Shown piece after piece: positions 1 to 37,258 of a DNA stretch of 37,258 nt (position 1 is the first letter of the stretch; every line of letters starts with the position of its first letter). A program made the position numbers and the translations under genes. The stretch lies in the IMG/VR virus record IMGVR_UViG_3300045988_061146; one strand, written 5' to 3'. Source of the stretch: a virus. The notes beneath the pieces are model-generated. The model searched no databases. It worked only from the letters and a program-made list of their open reading frames with translations, and was not told the origin of the DNA.

Positions 1-74
1 AACTTCTTCACGTCCAGACCAGCGGTCTTCACGACGATATTTTCAAGCATTTTCCGAACGGTCATTTTCTTCAT
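1..74 (-). CDS. 5' end (about 25 codons) of a hypothetical early gene. It is a duplicate of 37160..37233 caused by the circular-assembly overlap, and the gene continues off the left edge.
   Basis: Bases 1..99 are identical to 37160..37258. The reverse complement of 1..74 encodes MKKMTVRKMLENIVVKTAGLDVKKF, which matches the N-terminus of ORF 36967..37248. Confidence 0.5.
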   Translation of the reverse strand, partial: MKKMTVRKMLENIVVKTAGLDVKK

Positions 75-196
75 AACCGGGACCCCCACATAAAAAAATT
101 AGACTGTGCGAAGGCCGTTGACCTTTGCACAATCTAATATTAAATCCCGCCTACGCAAAAGTCAAGATTAAATTGTAAAAAACCTGAAAAAAGTTT

Positions 197-1249
197 TTAC
201 CCCAGGGCGGCCAGACCTTCGGCGAAGACTTCGTCAGCGGACCGGAAGCCCAGGATTTCGCGCGGGTAGGCGTTCAGCCAGTCTTCGACGGCCTGGATCT
301 CCTTCTTCGGGACCTGGCCGAAGTCGGTCCCCTTCGGAAACCAGCGCCGGATCATTCTGTTTATGTTCTCATTTGTGCCGCGTTCATAGGAAGAATACGG
401 GTGGCAGTAAAAGACCGTCGTCCGCTTGCCCTTCCGGCGACAGGACCGTTCCAGTCCTTCGACGTCGGCGAACTCGCTTCCGTTATCAACTGTAATCGTT
501 TGAAATATCTTGTAGAAAAGTGTTCCGTATCTGCGCTCAAGGCGATCAAGGGCCGCGACGACGCTTCCGGCGGTCTGGTCCTTCATTTTGATCATGATTT
601 CCTTCCGGGCCTTGCGTTCAGACAGGACCAGAAGCGTTTCCTTCGTCTTCTTCTTGCCTTCGACACAGTCCATTTCCCAGTGTCCGACTTCCTCGCGGGT
701 GTCGATTTCTGGGTCCCGCTTTTCAATGCTCTTTCCGGCCGACGCCCTGGCGGCCTTCTTGTTCTTCTTGACCTTCGTGTAGGGGCGCTTCTGCTTCCCC
801 TTGCATGGAAGGTGAACCATTTCCAGGGTCAGGAACACGCCCTTCTTGATGTAGGAATACAGGGTCGCTTCACAGATCGTTGTGTTGAACTGGATTCCCT
901 TCACCTTGATTTCGCCCAGGACGGCCGCCGGGGAATATCCGTCTTCGACGATCCGGCGTTCAATGTATTCGGCCAGTCGATAGTCCTTCCCGATCTTCAA
1001 GTCTGGACCCTTCGCGGCCAGGTGTTCACGGTATGCGGCTTCGGCTATGTCTGGGCTATACCGTTCTTCTTCGGTCCAGTCTGAATTTCTGTGGGTATAA
1101 CGCCCCCGCTTCAATTCGTTGTATATGGTGTTCCTGTGAACGCCGATTTCGTCGGCGATTTCCTGGACAGACTTTCCGCACTTCAAGAAGGCTTCGATCC
1201 GAAGGCGGTCATTCCAGGATAGATGTCTGAATCTGCGTCGCTTTGCCAT
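197..1249 (-). mobile_element. IS30-family DDE transposase CDS, 351 aa. The likely start is MAKRRRF at 1249, not the ORF-track M at 1378.
   Basis: N-terminal HTH (NDRLRIEAFLKCGKSVQEIADEIGVHRNTIYNELKRG) and a C-terminal DDE-type core (VDNGSEF ... YCHPYSSYERGTNEN) are typical of IS30 transposases. The RBS is GGGGGAAATACAC followed by ATG. The inverted-repeat ends of an IS could not be defined. Confidence 0.75.
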
Positions 1250-1269
1250 GTGTATTTCCCCCTTATAGC

Positions 1270-1313
1270 AAGAAAAAGGCCCCGCCCTCGCTGTTATGGC
1301 AAGGGTGGGGCCT
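1270..1313 (-). terminator. Rho-independent terminator downstream of the XRE repressor gene
   Basis: Stem ggccccgccct / agggtggggcc with a loop, and an A-run on the plus strand that gives a U-run on the minus strand. Confidence 0.55.
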
Positions 1314-1325
1314 TCGTGTGTATGT

Positions 1326-1538
1326 TCAAATAAGTTCGCGCGGGTGGACGCCCAGGGCGTCGGCGATCCGTAGGGCAACGGTCAGGGAAGCGCCTTCGAT
1401 TTTTCGTTCCCCGCTTTCGTACCTCTGGATCGCGCGGATATTGACGCCGGTTTTTTCCGCCAGGGCGGCCTGTGTCAGCCCCCGTTCACAGCGCAAGCGC
1501 GCGACTTTCGTTTCGCTTTTGGTGCTTCCGGATTTCAT
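1326..1538 (-). CDS. XRE-family HTH transcriptional regulator (CI/Cro-like), 70 aa
   Basis: LTQAALAEKTGVNIRAIQRYESGERKIEGASLTVALRIADALGV is a classic HTH_3 sequence. Confidence 0.8.
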   Translation of the reverse strand: MKSGSTKSETKVARLRCERGLTQAALAEKTGVNIRAIQRYESGERKIEGASLTVALRIADALGVHPRELI

Positions 1539-1629: not shown

Positions 1630-1878
1630 TCATTCTTCTTCCGGGTCCAGTAGGTCTTCAATGGGTACTTGAAGAACGGAAGCGAAGGCGCGAAGTTCGT
1701 AGTCCATGACCAGGCGCGCGCCTGATTCGATGTTGCTGATCGCGTCCTGGGCTATGTTCACGCCCTTTGTTTGCATTTTAGCGGCCAGGGTTTCCTGCGA
1801 AATGCGCTTCGCCAGACGTGCCATTCTGACGCGCTCCCCGCAGACATTCCGCCGGCCGTAATAGCCCAAATTCTTCAT
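1630..1878 (-). CDS. XRE-family HTH transcriptional regulator, about 82 aa from MKNLGYY. The ORF-track M at 1929 is an alternative start.
   Basis: The HTH is RVRMARLAKRISQETLAAKMQTKGVNIAQDAISNIESG. The RBS GGGAGGAGCTT sits before ATG at 1878. Confidence 0.7.
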   Translation of the reverse strand: MKNLGYYGRRNVCGERVRMARLAKRISQETLAAKMQTKGVNIAQDAISNIESGARLVMDYELRAFASVLQVPIEDLLDPEEE

Positions 1879-1904
1879 AAGCTCCTCCCTGATTATGGTC
1901 ATGT

Positions 1905-1960
1905 TCAATATTTTATTTGAAGTTACCATAAACTATGGTATTATATTATTGGCATGAACC
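1905..1960 (+). promoter_or_regulatory. Divergent promoter and operator region. A sigma-70-like TTGAAG-N16-TATTAT promoter on the plus strand overlaps a perfect palindrome, TACCATAAACTATGGTA.
   Basis: Read directly from the sequence, between the divergently oriented XRE gene and the plus-strand membrane-protein gene. Confidence 0.5.
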
Positions 1961-1986
1961 ATAATTCCAAAAGGGAGGATTGAAAA

Positions 1987-2643
1987 ATGGGCTGGAAAAT
2001 TGGCGGTGTTCTGACTTTGGTTCTGGCTGGTGTGGCCGCGCTTGTGTCTGCCACGACGCCGGCGGAGTACAAAACAGGGATTGAATGGGGGATCGCGGCG
2101 ATCTTCCTTGTCCTGGCGGTTTTGTGCTTCTGGCGTGGTTCGAAGGCAAGCGCAAGGAAGAAGGCAGAACAGGAAGACAGGAATGAAACGTATATGTCCG
2201 ACCAGGACCTTCAACAGATACAGGCGGGGGAACTCCCTGTTCTGTCTTCGGTCCCTGTGATCCTGGACGACGGCGAACAGGCTCACTTCTTCGCGCCGGC
2301 GCGACGTTATATCACGAAGAAGAAGGCCGTCGGCCGGACCGGTAGCGGCGGCGGGATCAGCGTTCGCGTTGCGAAGGGCGTGTCTGTCCGTTCCGGCGGC
2401 GGGGCCAGTCAGACGGTTTATGATGACGTCACTGACGCCTTCGCCGGCCGTGTGGTTCTGACGAACAGACGGATCGTGTTCCTGGCGGAACAGAACGGCT
2501 TCGAATGTAAACTGTCGGCGATCTCCGCGATCGCGCCGGAAGGCGGTCGGCTTCTGATCCAGGCTGGGTCGAAGTCTTATGGCCTGGCCGTAGCGCAACA
2601 GGGCCACTTCGCGAAGGTTCTTGAAATAGTCGCCAGAAAATAA
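1987..2643 (+). CDS. Membrane protein with two N-terminal TM helices and a bacterial PH (bPH_2-like) domain. It is a candidate superinfection-exclusion or lysogenic-conversion protein.
   Basis: The RBS AAGGGAGGA precedes the ATG. There are hydrophobic N-terminal helices, and the motif VVLTNRRIVFL resembles the bPH core. It is the only substantial plus-strand gene, it sits in the lysogeny module, and it ends at a bidirectional terminator. Confidence 0.6.
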   Translation: MGWKIGGVLTLVLAGVAALVSATTPAEYKTGIEWGIAAIFLVLAVLCFWRGSKASARKKAEQEDRNETYMSDQDLQQIQAGELPVLSSVPVILDDGEQAHFFAPARRYITKKKAVGRTGSGGGISVRVAKGVSVRSGGGASQTVYDDVTDAFAGRVVLTNRRIVFLAEQNGFECKLSAISAIAPEGGRLLIQAGSKSYGLAVAQQGHFAKVLEIVARK

Positions 2644-5553: not shown

Positions 5554-7260
5554 TTATGCGAAACGGACCGTCGCCTGGATCACTTCGATCTGCTGGGTCC
5601 CCTTCGTCAGATAGAAGCGATAGGCCAGGCCGAAGCCCTTTGCGACGGTGGTATTCTTGAACGTGTGGACGAACTTCCCGACCTTGCTTGTGACGTCCTC
5701 CCAGACAGGGGCCGTGTCGAACGGGTTGTTCGTGACCTCGACGTGAAGGGTCGCGTCGGCCGGGTGGTCGGTGGGGTACAAGGACAGGAAGACCTTCGTC
5801 ACCTTCGCGTCGGTGGAGATCGCGCGGGACGCGGCGATCCTGTTGACGGTTCGGGTGAAGGTGATCTGGCGGGTTGCGCTTCCGCCAGCTCCGTCAGTGA
5901 CATAGATTTTCAGAACGTGGGTCCCGGTCAAAAGGCGAAGCCACACGCCGGACAGGTCCGCCGTGTTCTGGTGACCGCTGGTCGCCGTATAGGTCCGAAG
6001 GGTGATGGTTTCCGACCCGTTGGTCACGGTTTCCGTAACGGTCAACGTCTGGGACGCCGCTTCGCCGTCGGTGACGGTGTACTGGTGGGAGAACGGGGCC
6101 GTCTTCGCGCCGACATTCTGGTCGCTTCCGCTGATCACGGGGTTCGTGTTGTAGGAAATGGCCTGGGCGTTTCCGGTCCTGTATGCAGATTCAGCGCCGT
6201 TCGCGTCGACCGCCTTCACGCGGACCTGATAGTTTGTCCCACTCGACGGGACCGTGTCTGTGATGGATTTCGCCGACGTGATCCCGATCTGGGTGTAGGC
6301 TCCGGAATCGACCCGGCGTTCCCAGACATAACTGATCGCGTTCCCCTCCGGATCGGTGGACCCGCCGGTGGAGATCGTCAACTTCTGGCCGGCGCGCGGG
6401 GTCCCGTGGGAGATGGACGACGGGGTGGTGGGTGGCTGGTTCCATTGAAGGATATAAGCCCCGTCTGTATCCGTTGTATCAGATACCAGAGTGTCAGGGG
6501 CCAAAAATAAAGCCGGGCGAACGCCGTAGTCGCCGCCGCACGCACTGTTCCAGTACAGACTGCCGTCGGAATTGACATTCCGCACGTAGTACGCGTAGCC
6601 GGCGTGCGGGGTCAGAAGCCACCACCACCAGGGGGACGAAGTGTTCAGGTTGGAACTGGTATATTCGGACTTGCTGACCGCTTCCGCCGTCGGGTATGCA
6701 AGGCGGCTGTTGTTGTCGGTGAACAGGGGCCACTTCGTTCCCTCTGCGATCCCGTTTTCGTTGCCCAGGCCGACTTCGGTCATAGTCAGAAGACGGACCT
6801 TCCGCGTGATTCGCTCCGAACCGCCGCCGTCGGTGACGGTGTTTTTCGCGACGGTGATCGTGTCATTCAGAAGGGCGTTTCGGAAGTCGGCTTCGAAGAA
6901 GGACAGGAAGCCGGCTTCGGCCTGGTATTCGTTGTAGTTGGACCAGACGTTCGCGTTATCAGGCGGGGCGTCCTGTCCGTGCTGGGCGCTGTACCAGCCG
7001 CCAGGGCCGGCGGCACTGTTCAGCCATTGAAGAAGGTTCGCCACGGCGGCGCGGTTGTTGCCGTAATTTCTGCGGTCGCTGTTGCTGTTGTTCGGCTCTT
7101 TCGCGTCGAAGCATTTCAGGGAAATAATTCGCTCCGTCACCAGGCCAACGCGGTCGGAAGACTGGCGGCCGACTTTGAAGCGGATCACAGCGCCGTTATA
7201 CTTCGTGTTGACCGATTTCACCACCGCGCCGACGGGCAACGTCGACAATTTTTTCGACAT
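5554..7260 (-). CDS. DGR target protein 1. It has a C-type-lectin/DUF1566-like variable domain (residues about 60-255, VR1 at 217-250) followed by FN3/Ig-like beta domains. It is a putative tail fibre or receptor-binding protein.
   Basis: The motif SSPWWWWLLTPHAGYAYYVRNVNSDGSLYWNSACGGDYGVRPALFL (WW...VRP) is typical of lectin-fold DGR VRs. It contains VR1 (6513..6612). The RBS is AAATGGAGGAATACC followed by ATG. The gene sits in tail-fibre position between the baseplate genes and the lysis cassette. Confidence 0.8.
   Translation of the reverse strand: MSKKLSTLPVGAVVKSVNTKYNGAVIRFKVGRQSSDRVGLVTERIISLKCFDAKEPNNSNSDRRNYGNNRAAVANLLQWLNSAAGPGGWYSAQHGQDAPPDNANVWSNYNEYQAEAGFLSFFEADFRNALLNDTITVAKNTVTDGGGSERITRKVRLLTMTEVGLGNENGIAEGTKWPLFTDNNSRLAYPTAEAVSKSEYTSSNLNTSSPWWWWLLTPHAGYAYYVRNVNSDGSLYWNSACGGDYGVRPALFLAPDTLVSDTTDTDGAYILQWNQPPTTPSSISHGTPRAGQKLTISTGGSTDPEGNAISYVWERRVDSGAYTQIGITSAKSITDTVPSSGTNYQVRVKAVDANGAESAYRTGNAQAISYNTNPVISGSDQNVGAKTAPFSHQYTVTDGEAASQTLTVTETVTNGSETITLRTYTATSGHQNTADLSGVWLRLLTGTHVLKIYVTDGAGGSATRQITFTRTVNRIAASRAISTDAKVTKVFLSLYPTDHPADATLHVEVTNNPFDTAPVWEDVTSKVGKFVHTFKNTTVAKGFGLAYRFYLTKGTQQIEVIQATVRFA
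6513..6612 (-). repeat. DGR variable repeat VR1, cognate to the TR at 8492..8591
   Basis: It is a 100-bp copy of the TR. All 10 mismatches fall at positions that are adenine on the coding (minus) strand of the TR. Confidence 0.85.
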
Positions 7261-8323
7261 GGTATTCCTCCATTTCTTTTTTGAACAGGTCGTAGAACAG
7301 TTCGTTCGTCTGCCTGATCAAGTGATAACTGTTTCCGTGTTCAGCGTGGCCGGTCCAGGAAGAATATGACTGGACCACGGTTTCGAAGTCGATCCGCCCT
7401 TCGTCCAGAAGGTGACGGAACTTCTTCAACTTCCGCCTGATCCGATTCTTGCTGTCGCGGCGTATCTTGCGGACGACTTTCCCGCTGTCCGTCATGTACG
7501 TCCGGAAGCCCAGGAAGTCGATCCCCTGGGTCAGCGGGAACACGGCCGTTTTGTGATTCAACTCCAGCCCCAGCGGGACCAGGAACTTTTTGATTTCTTC
7601 CAGACAGTAAATCAGATAGTCCTTGTCCGGGTGGATCAGGAAGAAGTCGTCCATATATCGGCCGTAAAACTTGATTCCCAGACGTTCCTTGATCATGTGG
7701 TCCAGGCCGGACAGGTACAGGACCGCGAACCATTGTGAAGTGTGGTTCCCGATCGGGATTCCCGGTCCTTCCGTGGAGTCGATAATCAAGTCAAGAAGCC
7801 ACAACACGCCGGGATCGTCGATGATCCGGCGAAGTTGTGACTTCAAAACGTCGTGATTGATACTGTAAAAGTATTTTCTTATGTCACACTTCAAGACCCA
7901 GCCGTCCGCCCCGAACTGCCTGTAATATCGTTGCATGAACGCTTTCAGACGGTCCAGGCCGAAATGTGTTCCTTTGCCTTTCTGACTGGCGTAGTTGTCA
8001 AATATGAACGTCTTCGCAAGGCGCGGTTCCAGGACATTGTCGCATAGGCTGTGCTGAATAATTTTGTCCCGGAAGCCGTTATACATGATCAGGCGTTCCT
8101 TCGGTTCATGGACCAGGAAGTAATTGTAGGGCGAAGGGCGGTATTTCCGCGACGTCAGAAGGAAGTGAAGGGCCATTAGATTTTCCAACAGGTTCGCTTC
8201 GAAACGGACGACAGCGTATTTCCACCGCTTTCCCTTGCACGCTTCCAGATAGGCAGAATAAAGCCGGTTAAAATCTGCCATGACTTCAAAGTCAGAAGGC
8301 GGTTTCTGTTCAGTGTTCTTCAT
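7196..8323 (-). CDS. brt: DGR reverse transcriptase, 375 aa
   Basis: The RT palm motif YMDD (GRYMDDFFLI) and the DGR-specific IGNHTSQ motif are present, in place of the QGxxxSP of retron or group II RTs. It is adjacent to the TR and avd. Confidence 0.9.
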   Translation of the reverse strand: MKNTEQKPPSDFEVMADFNRLYSAYLEACKGKRWKYAVVRFEANLLENLMALHFLLTSRKYRPSPYNYFLVHEPKERLIMYNGFRDKIIQHSLCDNVLEPRLAKTFIFDNYASQKGKGTHFGLDRLKAFMQRYYRQFGADGWVLKCDIRKYFYSINHDVLKSQLRRIIDDPGVLWLLDLIIDSTEGPGIPIGNHTSQWFAVLYLSGLDHMIKERLGIKFYGRYMDDFFLIHPDKDYLIYCLEEIKKFLVPLGLELNHKTAVFPLTQGIDFLGFRTYMTDSGKVVRKIRRDSKNRIRRKLKKFRHLLDEGRIDFETVVQSYSSWTGHAEHGNSYHLIRQTNELFYDLFKKEMEEYHVEKIVDVARRRGGEIGQHEV

Positions 8324-8491
8324 AAAAATCTCCTTACCGCTTATAGTCTGGGCGTCGTACTGCCGAAGCCCTCGCGTCAGTAATCATGTGTTTACCCTGG
8401 CCTTTCCGGCGTCGGGAAGGATATGATCTCCTTTGTTGGGGTACTCTGTTTTCAGGTTCGTCGCCTTACTCGGTCGCGTTTTCCACCAAAT
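8324..8491 (-). ncRNA. Putative DGR spacer (Sp) RNA segment between the TR and the RT gene
   Basis: Its position is equivalent to the Sp region of characterised DGR RNAs and it holds no credible ORF. This is inference only. Confidence 0.3.
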
Positions 8492-8591
8492 CCGGGCGAA
8501 CGCCGTTGTTGCCGTTGTACGCATTGTTCCAGTTCAGACTGCCGTCGGAATTGACATTCCGCACGTTGTTCGCGTTGCCGGCGTTCGGGGT
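8492..8591 (-). repeat. DGR template repeat (TR)
   Basis: It is non-coding and AAC/AAT-rich on the minus strand, and would read TPNAGNANNVRNVNSDGSLNWNNAYNGNNGVRP in the VR frame. It is the consensus copy from which VR1 and VR2 differ only or mostly at adenines. It lies between avd and the RT. Confidence 0.85.
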
Positions 8592-36517: not shown

Positions 36518-36678
36518 TCGCCCACCGCCTTTTCTTCCCGCGCGTCGGTACGCTTGCCCTTTTTCTTTTTCTGGGGAAGGGTGATCCCCAGTTTCGCGGC
36601 GCACGTCCGGCCGTAACCGACTTCGCGGAAAAACGGGTCCTTCAATCGGCGGCCACAGCGCCCACAGGTATCAGACAT
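36514..36678 (-). CDS. Small CGRC zinc-binding protein, about 54 aa
   Basis: MSDTCGRCGRRLKDPFFREVGYGRTCAAKLG. The RBS is AAGGAGGGAAATGCAA followed by ATG. Confidence 0.4.
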   Translation of the reverse strand: MSDTCGRCGRRLKDPFFREVGYGRTCAAKLGITLPQKKKKGKRTDAREEKAVGE

Positions 36679-36973
36679 TTGCATTTCCCTCCTTCTTTCG
36701 TCCACGGCGGCGAAGGCCCTCCTGGACCCGCTTCTGGGCCAGTTCCGGGTCATACGCCGGGCGGAAGTTCTTGTCCAGGGTGACGCCGTCCTGGCCGCGC
36801 TTCAACTCGGTATAGACGGTGGTTCGCGACACGCCGATTTTCTGGGCGATTTCGCCGGCGATCGCCCCGTTCGCATACATGGAAGCGATCGTCTTTCGGT
36901 CGTCGAACTCGATCGTTTTGAACTGTCTTGCCACGTTTTCACCTTCTTTCTTTTCCTTTGGCGGCGTCACCAA
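36671..36973 (-). CDS. Stand-alone HTH_38-type DNA-binding protein that resembles the N-terminal HTH of the IS30 transposase. It may start at an internal GTG near 36934.
   Basis: IASMYANGAIAGEIAQKIGVSRTTVYTELKRG compared with the transposase sequence IEAFLKCGKSVQEIADEIGVHRNTIYNELKRG. Confidence 0.5.
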   Translation of the reverse strand: MVTPPKEKKEGENVARQFKTIEFDDRKTIASMYANGAIAGEIAQKIGVSRTTVYTELKRGQDGVTLDKNFRPAYDPELAQKRVQEGLRRRGRKKEGNANV

Positions 36974-37233
36974 AGGTTTTTGTCGGGGTCCCCGTTGGTC
37001 TGCTCAACGTCCGGGTTGTAGATTACAGTGACGACGTCTTCGTAACGCTTCGCGGCCACGATTTCGACTTCCCACAGGACATTCCACGTCGCGACCTTGC
37101 AGATCAAATCGACCGCAAAGTCAGCCGTGACGACTTCGCCGTCCATAGACACCAGGTAGAACTTCTTCACGTCCAGACCAGCGGTCTTCACGACGATATT
37201 TTCAAGCATTTTCCGAACGGTCATTTTCTTCAT
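36967..37233 (-). CDS. Hypothetical early protein, about 88 aa from MKKMTVRK
   Basis: Its first 25 codons are duplicated at window positions 1..74 because of the assembly overlap. Confidence 0.4.
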   Translation of the reverse strand: MKKMTVRKMLENIVVKTAGLDVKKFYLVSMDGEVVTADFAVDLICKVATWNVLWEVEIVAAKRYEDVVTVIYNPDVEQTNGDPDKNLW

Positions 37234-37258
37234 AACCGGGACCCCCACATAAAAAAAT

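Follow-up and report, generated by a model that had tools for sequence, protein, structure and literature searches.

Comparison of sequences indicates that the stretch of DNA analysed here, 37,258 nucleotides long and termed the window, very probably carries a complete temperate myovirus of gut Clostridia belonging to the Lagaffe/'IScream' class, in which an IS30-family transposase serves as the sole recombinase and the whole 37.16-kb genome is transposable. This estimate applies to the explanation as a whole, comprising the ends, the target duplication and the promoter spacing together with steps inferred from IS30 and from the anatomy of the element. The genome is a circle of 37,159 bp, with a direct terminal overlap of the assembly (99 bp, 1..99) that is an exact copy of 37160-37258; an earlier sequence-only reading had taken the window ends for the circular junction, which lies instead at 152/153. 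A six-frame Pfam scan found small and large terminase subunits, portal, capsid, sheath, tube, tape measure, baseplate, lysis and replication genes, and the genome also contains a DGR with its reverse transcriptase. The closest relatives of the phage are found in Oscillospiraceae MAGs. When 25 kb of the window was compared with deposited phages by megablast, the single match was a 494-bp lysin segment covering 2% of the query, and the phage therefore has no close sequenced relative among them.

The phage is a further member of a published class rather than a new one, the use of an IS30 transposase as integrase having been known since 2018 and the class having been named in 2025. In the Faecalibacterium phage Lagaffe the integrase is described as an IS30 transposase, and direct repeats flank the prophage (Cornuault et al., 2018; PMC5883640). 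The IScream phages include a circular, DNase-protected phage of B. hansenii, and about 1,780 candidates are reported from one gut virus catalogue (Wirbel, Hickey et al., Nature 2025; PMC12823448). As presented in their main texts, both papers define the class by gene content and liken it to composite transposons (PMC5883640, PMC12823448). Like the IScream phages, the present one is a temperate tailed phage of gut Clostridia without a tyrosine or serine integrase, with an outward full-length IS30 transposase within 1 kb of one end, an inward HTH-only gene at the other, a full set of structural, lysis and replication genes, a DGR with reverse transcriptase, insertion in diverse host contexts and, as noted for Lagaffe, flanking direct repeats. 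Gene order matches gp34-gp38 of Lagaffe, although identity between the transposase and Lagaffe gp37 ('Integrase, IS30 Transposase family') is only 59% and DNA similarity to deposited phages is almost nil.

The transposase gene (197..1249, minus strand) encodes a protein of 350 amino acids that matches the NCBIfam profile NF033563 (transpos_IS30) with 228.2 bits against a cut-off of 80 (E 1.5e-67), over profile positions 1-266 of 267. Pfam places an HTH_38 domain at residues 7-49 and an rve domain at residues 187-263, the latter with 29.0 bits, under the gathering cut-off of 32.6 (E 1.3e-6). The triad is kept, with D194, D255 and E294 each found in at least 97% of 111 homologues. An exact-protein look-up for the transposase returned no record. 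All stop-to-stop open reading frames of at least 100 amino acids in six frames (n = 148) were compared with Pfam; rve was found in the transposase alone, and Phage_integrase, Resolvase and Recombinase had no match at E ≤ 1e-3. Both the IS30 assignment and the lack of a tyrosine or serine recombinase had been proposed from the letters of the sequence, and both are borne out. The two XRE-family HTH regulators recognized beside the transposase gene are likewise upheld (1326-1538 and 1630-1929, minus strand), with HTH_3 matches and membership in PHROG repressor/regulator families; they lie upstream of the gene in a lysogeny-module context, and the order of the three genes is that of Lagaffe. A GC-rich, terminator-like hairpin (inverted repeat I3; 1275..1314, minus strand) separates the XRE gene from the transposase gene, and the promoter scan found no promoter-like site between this hairpin and the transposase start codon. 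The same hairpin (then 1270..1313) had been considered together with the region 190..215 as a pair of ends, an idea abandoned here, the former being terminator-like and upstream of the gene.

A full-length and typical IS30-family transposase could be the passenger enzyme of an ordinary IS of about 1.1-1.2 kb that landed in the lysogeny module and replaced or disrupted the integrase, much as IS30-like ISs ride in other phages such as phiPV83 and bIL311. This explanation, one of two offered by the sequence-only reading, is hardly credible, because the gene is bracketed by neither inverted repeats nor a target duplication. The best inverted match around it (75-196 against the reverse complement of 1250-1340) scores 8, while shuffled sequences average 6.7 ± 1.0 and 75 of 500 reach 8. 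The search of the flanks for a simple IS with inverted repeats and a 2-3 bp duplication thus gave chance-level matches only, and no target duplication bounds a 1.1-1.2 kb element at this gene. No integrase remnant was seen in the six-frame scan of open reading frames of at least 100 amino acids. Moreover, the order XRE, XRE, transposase, element end, HTH-only gene is kept among phages whose transposases are 41-100% identical, and in dozens of independent insertions the prophage boundary lies 43 nt past the transposase stop codon. The other explanation offered, a DDE-transposase-based system of integration and excision, is supported by these boundaries, by the many host sites and target duplications of the relatives, and by the same gene layout in the published Lagaffe and IScream phages.

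The tips of the element are set by 48 junctions with host DNA (19 right and 29 left). Homology to integrated relatives ends at 152-157; at the right end 19 distinct host flanks start directly after ...CTTGACTTTTGCG, while 29 distinct integrated junctions start at the left terminal repeat, and both ends are present in a deleted derivative (L012). The right terminal inverted repeat (154..183, tip base 154), toward which the transposase gene reads outward, holds copy C of an end motif (168-181) and a -35-like TTGACT (160-165). The left terminal inverted repeat (122..151, tip base 151) holds copy B (124-137) and a -10-like TAATAT (137-142). Between the abutted ends lies a 2-bp spacer, TA (152..153), forming an IR-IR junction equivalent to attP, in which the tips are constant and the dinucleotide varies. 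Among circular relatives the spacer is TA, AA, AC, TT, CG, CT or GG, and in three other clades it is AA/AT/CA/AG/GT, AA/CA and GA/TC, so that a variable 2-bp spacer is found in four clades in total. An automatic junction classifier missed clade 1 and let in four integrated sites, and its output was used for the other clades only. Assembly closes the window and several relatives into circles at the IR-IR junction, and this phage presumably circularises and produces virions.

In register, the left and right ends match at 18 of 30 bases, a score reached by 3 of 500 shuffles; the inverted repeat of this clade is weak, and other clades have clearer ones. The earlier remark that no clean terminal repeats could be defined stands for the surroundings of the transposase gene, where matches are at chance level, and falls for the element, whose end repeats lie at 122-151 and 154-183. 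A palindrome at 95-114/122-141 with a 7-bp loop was also tried as the abutted ends and was ruled out, the integrated relatives placing the tips at 151 and 154; it is an internal hairpin of the left end. Alignment with free ends reveals a second likeness, GCAAARGTCAA, found at the right tip and in the loop of the left hairpin.

The gene for a paralogue of the transposase N-terminus (36671..36934, minus strand; 87 amino acids) lies some 375 nt in from the left tip and is directed inward; its product contains HTH_38 (E 2.3e-9) and lacks the rve domain. It is 35% identical to transposase residues 5-81 over 77 amino acids (E 6e-12) and matches phrog_11420 (E 4e-27), as well as the N-terminus of the transposase family phrog_4646. 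The likeness between the two proteins had been noted before and is confirmed, while the start formerly placed at 36973 is moved to a GTG at 36934. The position of the gene is that of Lagaffe gp38, and it corresponds to the 'inward-directed truncated IS30' reported in the main text on the IScream phages (PMC12823448).

Such an arrangement might suggest a composite transposon, in which two IS30 copies flank the phage, one has decayed to an HTH-only stub, and mobility depends on the outer ends of separate ISs. The HTH-only gene does lie just inside the left end, as the N-terminal part of the transposase gene does in an IS30, the full gene ends beside the right inverted repeat, as in an IS30, and outward full-length and inward truncated IS30 genes are described as a pair in the main text of the IScream paper (PMC12823448). 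Inner inverted repeats are absent, however, the end motif occurring three times in the whole genome, always within 99-181, a distribution that also counts against an IS having replaced the integration module. With 35% identity to its partner and a PHROG of its own, the HTH-only gene is evidently old and maintained rather than a decaying copy, and in functional terms a single enzyme works with a single pair of ends. The composite arrangement is accordingly unlikely as a description of the present element, and a composite origin is possible as its history. The reading in which the whole phage moves as one unit between a single pair of ends is preferred.

Integrated relatives end exactly at the tips, at dozens of different host sites, and genes in the flanks encode a LacI-family regulator, a Gfo/Idh/MocA oxidoreductase, LexA, tRNA-Arg, EF-G and MetK. 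The target duplication is 15 bp in four of four cases (L012; L098/L153; L035; and L115 with L157, two contigs from one sample), three of which involve a deleted derivative or sequence on two contigs, the set including no full-length prophage that has its two ends on a single contig. To the question of whether prophage junctions would resemble attL/attR or transposon ends, the relatives give a transposon-like answer, with 15-bp duplications at varied sites.

What the sites share is a promoter. At 22 of 29 distinct left junctions a sigma-A-type host promoter is directed away from the prophage, its -35 box starting 24-28 bp from the left tip (a match of at least 9/12 at that offset being the criterion) and exactly 26 bp from it in 15. 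Shuffled left flanks gave a mean of 0.27 matches and a maximum of 2, and no match was found in left flanks at other 5-nt offset windows from 0 to 64. The position table of the left flanks shows TTG at 26-28, TG at 46-47 and TAnAAT at 49-54. Outward from the left tip the layout consists of the 15-bp duplicated target, about 11 A-rich bp, the -35 box, 17 bp and a TG-extended -10 box. The host gene beyond is transcribed away from the prophage; insertion is oriented, and the joint lies near -61 of the promoter. In three other clades five of five informative flanks fit the rule, L196, L201, L207 and L208 having been discarded as unrelated sequence and the flank of L195 being too short to inform. 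Right flanks showed no positional promoter enrichment, and the promoter was absent from three of the 29 left flanks (L165, L169, L185). Survivorship could contribute to an intergenic bias but cannot explain the exact spacing.

These data also bear on the idea that the enzyme recombines site-specifically at one defined attB, as has been engineered for IS30 in phage lambda. The IS30 transposase is in fact capable of site-specific recombination, reportedly between the IR-IR junction and hot spots. Nevertheless, the 48 distinct flanks hold no sequence common to them, the duplications vary between insertions and are missing from the circular junction, and the position table contains no conserved core common to attP and the insertion sites. 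The sites have in common a promoter architecture at a fixed distance and not an attB sequence, which makes recombination at a single attB very improbable, and transposition next to promoters is the reading retained here.

Joining of the ends creates a promoter-like site, TTGACT-17 nt-TAATAT (137..165, minus strand), detected by promoter scan with its -35 in the right end and its -10 in the left end. Only the circle contains this site, which is directed into the early genes. Clades with diverged ends keep a -35, 16-17 nt and a -10 at their true junctions (TATTAT, TAACAT, TAGAAT, TATCAT and TATAAT), and the site probably acts as a promoter, although the conserved TTGAC and TAATAT could instead be sequence bound by the transposase. 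Immediately within the left end lies a terminator-like hairpin with a T7 run at 91-97 (inverted repeat I2; 91..138, minus strand), whose arms, 122-138 and 98-114, are copies B and A of the end motif. The RNA fold has a predicted energy of -24.1 kcal/mol (z -4.2), and seven close relatives carry compensatory changes in 3 of 14 pairs, with further pairs becoming G-U on this strand. Five other clades again have a hairpin and U-run with different stems (z -3.4 to -6.2), the covariation coming from the close clade alone and the folds of the other clades from single sequences. The palindrome could be a protein-binding site instead of a terminator.

Several of these features parallel IS30 itself, and the nearest true bacterial IS30 elements are those of C. 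thermocellum, T. denticola and Halanaerobium. The element shares with IS30 the HTH_38 and DDE architecture, a transposase gene reading toward the right inverted repeat, terminal inverted repeats of about 20-30 bp that abut over 2 bp in the circle, and a junction promoter-like site with -35 in one end and -10 in the other. Classical IS30-family elements are 1-1.7 kb long and generate target duplications of 2-3 bp, whereas the present unit is a phage of 37,159 bp with a duplication of 15 bp. Long duplications have precedent in the family, those of IS1630 being 19-26 bp (PMC2853133). IS30 transposes by a copy-out-paste-in mechanism through a circle in which IRL and IRR are abutted with 2-bp spacing, and its IR-IR junction contains a strong promoter, Pjunc (PMC9333248). 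The targets of IS30 are palindromic hot spots or inverted repeats, in contrast to the upstream edge of promoters here. Further differences are that the junction promoter is directed into the HTH-only and early genes rather than a full transposase gene, and that a separate HTH-only paralogue is present.

By analogy with IS30, the transposase is probably active in this phage, and copy-out would yield a circular copy with joined ends and 2 bp taken from a flank, the IR-IR junction then being the reactive substrate for paste-in. Judging from the anatomy, the joined ends would form a promoter that fires into the early genes in the circle only and is dismantled by integration, while the left-end terminator hairpin would stop transcription entering from outside. 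Transcripts from the junction promoter would start within the 5' arm of the hairpin and hence escape the terminator. The HTH-only paralogue may be a regulator or targeting cofactor acting on end-like or promoter DNA.

The TnGBS elements, reportedly conjugative, are like the present phage large mobile elements of Firmicutes with a DDE transposase in place of an integrase and a circular intermediate. TnGBS and the ISLre2 and ISKra4 ISs contain prokaryotic Mutator-like DDE transposases; in TnGBS the distance from the inverted repeat to the -35 box is 15-17 bp, and docking on promoter-bound RNA polymerase has been proposed as the means of promoter targeting (Guerillot, 2014; PMC3942029). Here the -35 box is instead 26 bp from the tip, that is, 11 bp past the duplicated 15 bp, and TnGBS and ISLre2 are conjugative elements or ISs and not phages. 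The transposase of this phage belongs to the IS30 family and is not of the Mutator-like kind, which has a signature motif associated with the targeting of promoters, so the likeness to TnGBS and ISLre2 is functional only. As in the TnGBS proposal, promoters are most likely recognized by docking on promoter-bound RNA polymerase; alternatively, the HTH_38 domains would read the promoter DNA directly. Searches by term of the main texts of the Lagaffe and IScream papers (PMC5883640, PMC12823448) gave nothing on a promoter-distance rule, a 15-bp duplication length, terminal inverted repeats, a variable 2-bp spacer, a junction promoter or a left-end terminator. A search for promoter targeting by IS30-family elements in a limited literature collection gave nothing relevant, which leaves its absence unproven.

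Taken jointly, the chances are about even that IScream phages are promoter-homing transposons whose transpososome, possibly helped by the paralogue with HTH alone, settles on sigma-A promoters, with RNA polymerase bound there as its most likely docking partner. The transpososome would insert 37 kb near -61 in one orientation, with a 15-bp duplication that spares the host promoter and its upstream A-tract, and the joined ends would constitute a topology-sensing promoter whose action on the early genes is confined to the circle, excised or infecting. The comparison offers a testable mechanism in which a single IS30-type end pair is joined across a 2-bp spacer and the target is cut with a 15-bp stagger. 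A promoter 'safe harbour' of this kind exists in any Firmicute and would help explain the reported broad host range and how these phages, with no specific attB, settle in many host families. If confirmed, promoter homing by these phages would be convergent with that of TnGBS elements and Ty3-type retrotransposons, and would represent a second, independent bacterial case of a DDE enzyme homing to promoters. It would likewise define what an attB-free system for integrating large cargo in gut Clostridia needs at minimum, namely a pair of ends of about 30-50 bp each and one or two proteins.

Phages of the Mu type, including the Faecalibacterium phage Mushu, also use a DDE enzyme, insert at many sites and generate target duplications, and Mu-like morphogenesis proteins (Mu F, Gp48) were found in the genome by Pfam. 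Unlike Mu, the present phage has a circle with a defined junction, small and large terminase subunits and replication genes of its own, its 148 six-frame open reading frames contain no Mu-type transposase or MuB domain by Pfam, and its relatives assemble as circles and not with variable host ends. Given these differences, the phage does not replicate by transposition. An open reading frame of 88 amino acids (36967..37233, minus strand) with no PHROG match comes first inside the left end, and the terminal overlap repeats its start at window position 74. This frame is missing from many relatives, and in L012, L087, L091 and L101 the HTH-only gene directly follows the left end.

Comparison of the window with its integrated relatives gives good support to a phage mobilized by one pair of IS30-type ends, with a 2-bp spacer at 152-153 in the circular form, a 15-bp target duplication, and insertion in one orientation at a point 26 bp upstream of a host -35 box. 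A terminal overlap of 99 bp (1..99 = 37160..37258) makes the genome a 37,159-bp circle, and the ends of the window are therefore an assembly artefact and no biological junction. All stop-to-stop ORFs of at least 100 aa in six frames (n = 148) were compared with Pfam, the three resulting family lists (19, 20, and 14 families) being complete. No Phage_integrase, Resolvase, or Recombinase domain was found among these ORFs, in agreement with the sequence-only reading that the genome lacks a tyrosine or serine recombinase, and the sole rve match was the transposase. The same scans returned a complete contractile-tailed phage gene set, comprising packaging and head genes (terminase small and large subunits, SPP1-type portal, Mu F-like protein, scaffold, capsid), tail genes (sheath, tube, tape measure, baseplate J), lysis genes (amidase, XhlA), and replication and other genes (SSB, Gp157, a DnaC/IstB-like loader, a methylase).

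The transposase (197..1249, minus strand, 350 aa) matches the curated IS30-family model with 228 bits (cut-off 80) and consists of an N-terminal HTH_38 domain and an rve-type core (Pfam). Residues D194, D255, and E294 are each at least 97% conserved in an alignment with 110 relatives, indicating an intact catalytic triad. The observation of an IS30-family transposase at this place is confirmed. The stand-alone HTH protein (36671..36934, minus strand, 87 aa, with its start placed at GTG 36934) had been likened to the transposase N-terminus, and the resemblance is real: the protein aligns with transposase residues 5-81 at 35% identity across 77 positions (E 6e-12). This HTH-only protein is a member of a separate phage protein family, phrog_11420.

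An IS insertion that replaced the integrase had been proposed as one explanation of this arrangement. This proved wrong: the gene is no simple IS, as it has no inverted repeats pairing its two sides. In the flanks, where a search for IS30-type repeats had been proposed, 75-196 matches 1250-1340 no better than shuffled sequence does. The hairpin near 1270..1313, once considered as an IS end, is a GC-rich terminator-like structure (1276-1314) between the upstream XRE gene and the transposase gene. The other proposal, a DDE-transposase-based integration system, was right: integrated relatives end at defined tips, are bracketed by 15-bp duplications in the four cases with both junctions, and are inserted in one orientation. 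Relatives of the transposase were collected from 80 loci in Clostridia genomes and MAGs and from 60 viral contigs. DNA similarity to the closest integrated relatives spans the tail, lysis, XRE, and transposase genes and always stops at window 152-157, and each of these loci terminates in ...ACAATTTAATCTTGACTTTT(G/T)CG, the equivalent of window base 154. Beyond this tip lies unrelated DNA (19 distinct right flanks). Ordinary host genes are encoded in the flanks of the integrated relatives, namely those for a LacI-family regulator together with a Gfo/Idh/MocA oxidoreductase, for LexA, and for a tRNA-Arg. Searches with the left-end sequence yielded 29 distinct left junctions, all starting GGCGGGATTTAATATT... 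or a close variant, which is the window read downward from 151.

Circular assemblies, the window among them, have the two tips side by side with just a dinucleotide between them, and this dinucleotide varies (TA in the window; AA, AC, TT, CG, CT, and GG elsewhere) while the tips are constant. Three more distant clades likewise have a variable dinucleotide between constant tips of their own. At the circle or dimer junction of IS30, IRL abuts IRR with 2 bp in between (PMC9333248), and a variable dinucleotide between constant tips is, as a sequence pattern, the hallmark of such a junction. Aligned in register from the tips, the ends have 18 of 30 bases in common with a core ATTA(A/G)ATTGT, and other clades have clearer terminal repeats than the window's. 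Genome-wide the core motif has just three copies, at 99-112, 124-137, and 168-181 (0.19 expected), so that the inner ends of a composite transposon of two complete ISs are lacking and such an arrangement is unlikely.

A 15-bp direct repeat, differing in sequence each time, brackets the element in all four independent cases with both junctions. Two of these are internally deleted derivatives. The first, L012 (276-6618, 6.3 kb, repeat TCTTTCTTTTCTTTT), adjoins a tRNA-Arg gene and has kept both ends, the duplication, the HTH-only gene, and the transposase; the second, L098/L153 (contig IMGVR_UViG_3300029761_000189, about 3.6 kb, repeat TCAAGCAGATCCCCT), has kept both ends and the duplication, and the L098 transposase is missing its first 53 residues. 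Such derivatives may have been deleted in place or may be mobilisable in trans like miniature elements. In another clade, the 3.9-kb prophage remnant L035 (7209-11089) contains a transposase, part of a lysin gene, and a pair of HicA/HicB-like genes recognized by eye only; its duplication is perfect (TCCCATCCAAAAAAC) and a host promoter lies at the usual 26-bp distance. Its left repeat, though intact, runs straight into internal phage DNA, without a recognisable left end. The fourth case joins two contigs of one sample (L115 and L157) from the clade of Faecalibacterium phage FP_Lagaffe, with repeat CGCAATCCAGGCGAT. Prophage junctions had been named as the place to distinguish att sites from transposon-like ends; the 15-bp repeats are not present at the circular junction and thus represent duplicated target DNA rather than an att core. 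The duplications of classical IS30 are 2 bp long (PMC9333248), whereas those of the IS30-type element IS1630 measure 19-26 bp (PMC2853133). In their account of Lagaffe, Cornuault et al. remarked on flanking direct repeats as a surprise (PMC5883640).

Left flanks were read outward from the tip, and a simple -35 / 16-18 nt / -10 match was scored at every offset. Of the 29 distinct left flanks, 22 matched at 9 or more of 12 positions with a -35 box that starts 24-28 nt beyond the tip, 15 of them at exactly 26 nt; in shuffled flanks such matches averaged 0.27 and never exceeded 2, and the other 5-nt windows between 0 and 64 gave zero. Four further flanks have a weaker promoter at an equal position, one being the tRNA-Arg promoter in L012, and three (L165, L169, L185) have none. 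By position, the duplicated 15 bp (offset 0-14) are without consensus, followed by an A-rich stretch (16-21), TTG at 26-28 (in 25, 23, and 20 of 29 flanks), TG at 46-47, and TAnAAT at 49-54. Together these signals make up a full sigma-A promoter of the Firmicutes, extended -10 box included. It faces away from the prophage in every case, and wherever gene calls exist the next host gene is divergent (e.g., EF-G, S-adenosylmethionine synthetase, aminotransferase); neither the right flanks nor the opposite orientation carry a positional signal. Three other clades provide five informative left flanks, and all of these keep the rule (offsets 26, 26, 26, 27, and 29). A -35 box 26 bp from the left tip places the joint near -61, and the duplicated 15 bp cover about -61 to -47, leaving the promoter and A-tract intact on the host side. 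How the promoter is recognized, and what role the HTH-only protein plays, are matters of inference. The HTH_38 domains of the transposase (residues 7-50) and of the HTH-only protein (residues 13-60) give weak, sub-cut-off matches to sigma-70 region 4 and ECF sigma models, and Sigma70_r4_2 is also listed in precomputed Pfam matches of homologues. Because insertion is keyed to promoters these matches are a lead, which may reflect merely generic HTH similarity.

Joining of the ends also creates a promoter-like arrangement. On the transposase strand the right end supplies TTGACT (165-160) and the left end TAATAT (142-137), with 17 nt between them across the junction. True junctions in clades with diverged ends again show a -35 / 16-17 nt / -10 layout, with -10-like hexamers TATTAT, TAACAT, TAGAAT, TATCAT, and TATAAT, and only a minority of integrated flanks give a -10-like hexamer at that place. 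The IS30 IR-IR junction makes a strong promoter, Pjunc (PMC9333248), and the anatomy of the ends suggests a junction promoter here. It would be present in the circular form only and would read into an 88-aa ORF (36967-37233, minus strand), the HTH-only gene, and the replication genes. The 88-aa ORF, which separates the HTH-only gene from the left end, has no family match and is missing in many close relatives (L012, L087, L091, L101), in which the HTH-only gene comes directly after the left end.

Directly downstream of the promoter-like site lies a hairpin (arms 137-122 and 114-98, then seven T; -24.1 kcal/mol, z -4.2). Among seven close relatives 3 of 14 pairs are changed on both sides, and a hairpin and U-run with different stems occur at the equivalent place in five other clades. 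A protein-binding palindrome is a possible reading of these arms; several other pairs change to G-U on the transposase strand only, which fits an RNA hairpin, and the structure is here taken as a putative terminator. Such a terminator would block transcription entering from outside, whether transposase read-through in the circle or host read-through in the prophage, while transcripts from the junction promoter would start within the 5' arm and so escape termination. The inner arm and loop of the hairpin (116-128, TGCAAAGGTCAAC) also show a second, out-of-register similarity to the right tip (154-166, CGCAAAAGTCAAG).

Phages of this kind have been described, by Cornuault et al. for Lagaffe (PMC5883640), whose gene order (HTH, regulator, transposase, HTH DNA-binding) is the same as the window's. 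Wirbel, Hickey et al. (Nature 2025; PMC12823448) named them 'IScream phages', with a full-length outward IS30 at one end and a truncated inward IS30 without catalytic domain at the other, reported some 1,780 candidates from a single catalogue of gut viruses, and showed a B. hansenii example to be circular and DNase-protected. The window has every sequence feature that marks this published class and is a new member of it. The Nature paper likens the phages to composite transposons, and its main text does not mention inverted repeats, target site, direct repeats, integration site, intergenic location, or promoters; the end anatomy and target rule thus appear, within the literature searched, to be additions to the published description. 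Promoter targeting is shared with TnGBS conjugative elements and the ISLre2 and ISKra4 ISs, which enter their targets in a single orientation, 15-17 bp upstream of a sigma-A promoter, and for which interaction with the RNA polymerase initiation complex was proposed (PMC3942029). Their transposases are Mutator-like DDE enzymes (PMC3942029), whereas that of the window is of the IS30 family, so the targeting would be convergent.

Two overlapping opposite-strand ORFs of about 220 aa each adjoin the XRE genes (1987-2643, plus strand; 1933-2607, minus strand); neither has a PHROG match, the plus-strand ORF has only a weak DUF3180 match, and in Lagaffe the equivalent position is taken by a hypothetical gene on the opposite strand. 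The window also carries a diversity-generating retroelement (5554-8591, minus strand), with a reverse transcriptase gene (7196-8323), a template repeat (8488-8591), and a variable repeat (6509-6612) within a DUF6273 gene (5554-7260). The repeats are 104 bp long and 88% identical, with 12 of 12 differences at adenines of the template copy, and a reverse transcriptase is likewise found in Lagaffe and other IScream relatives.
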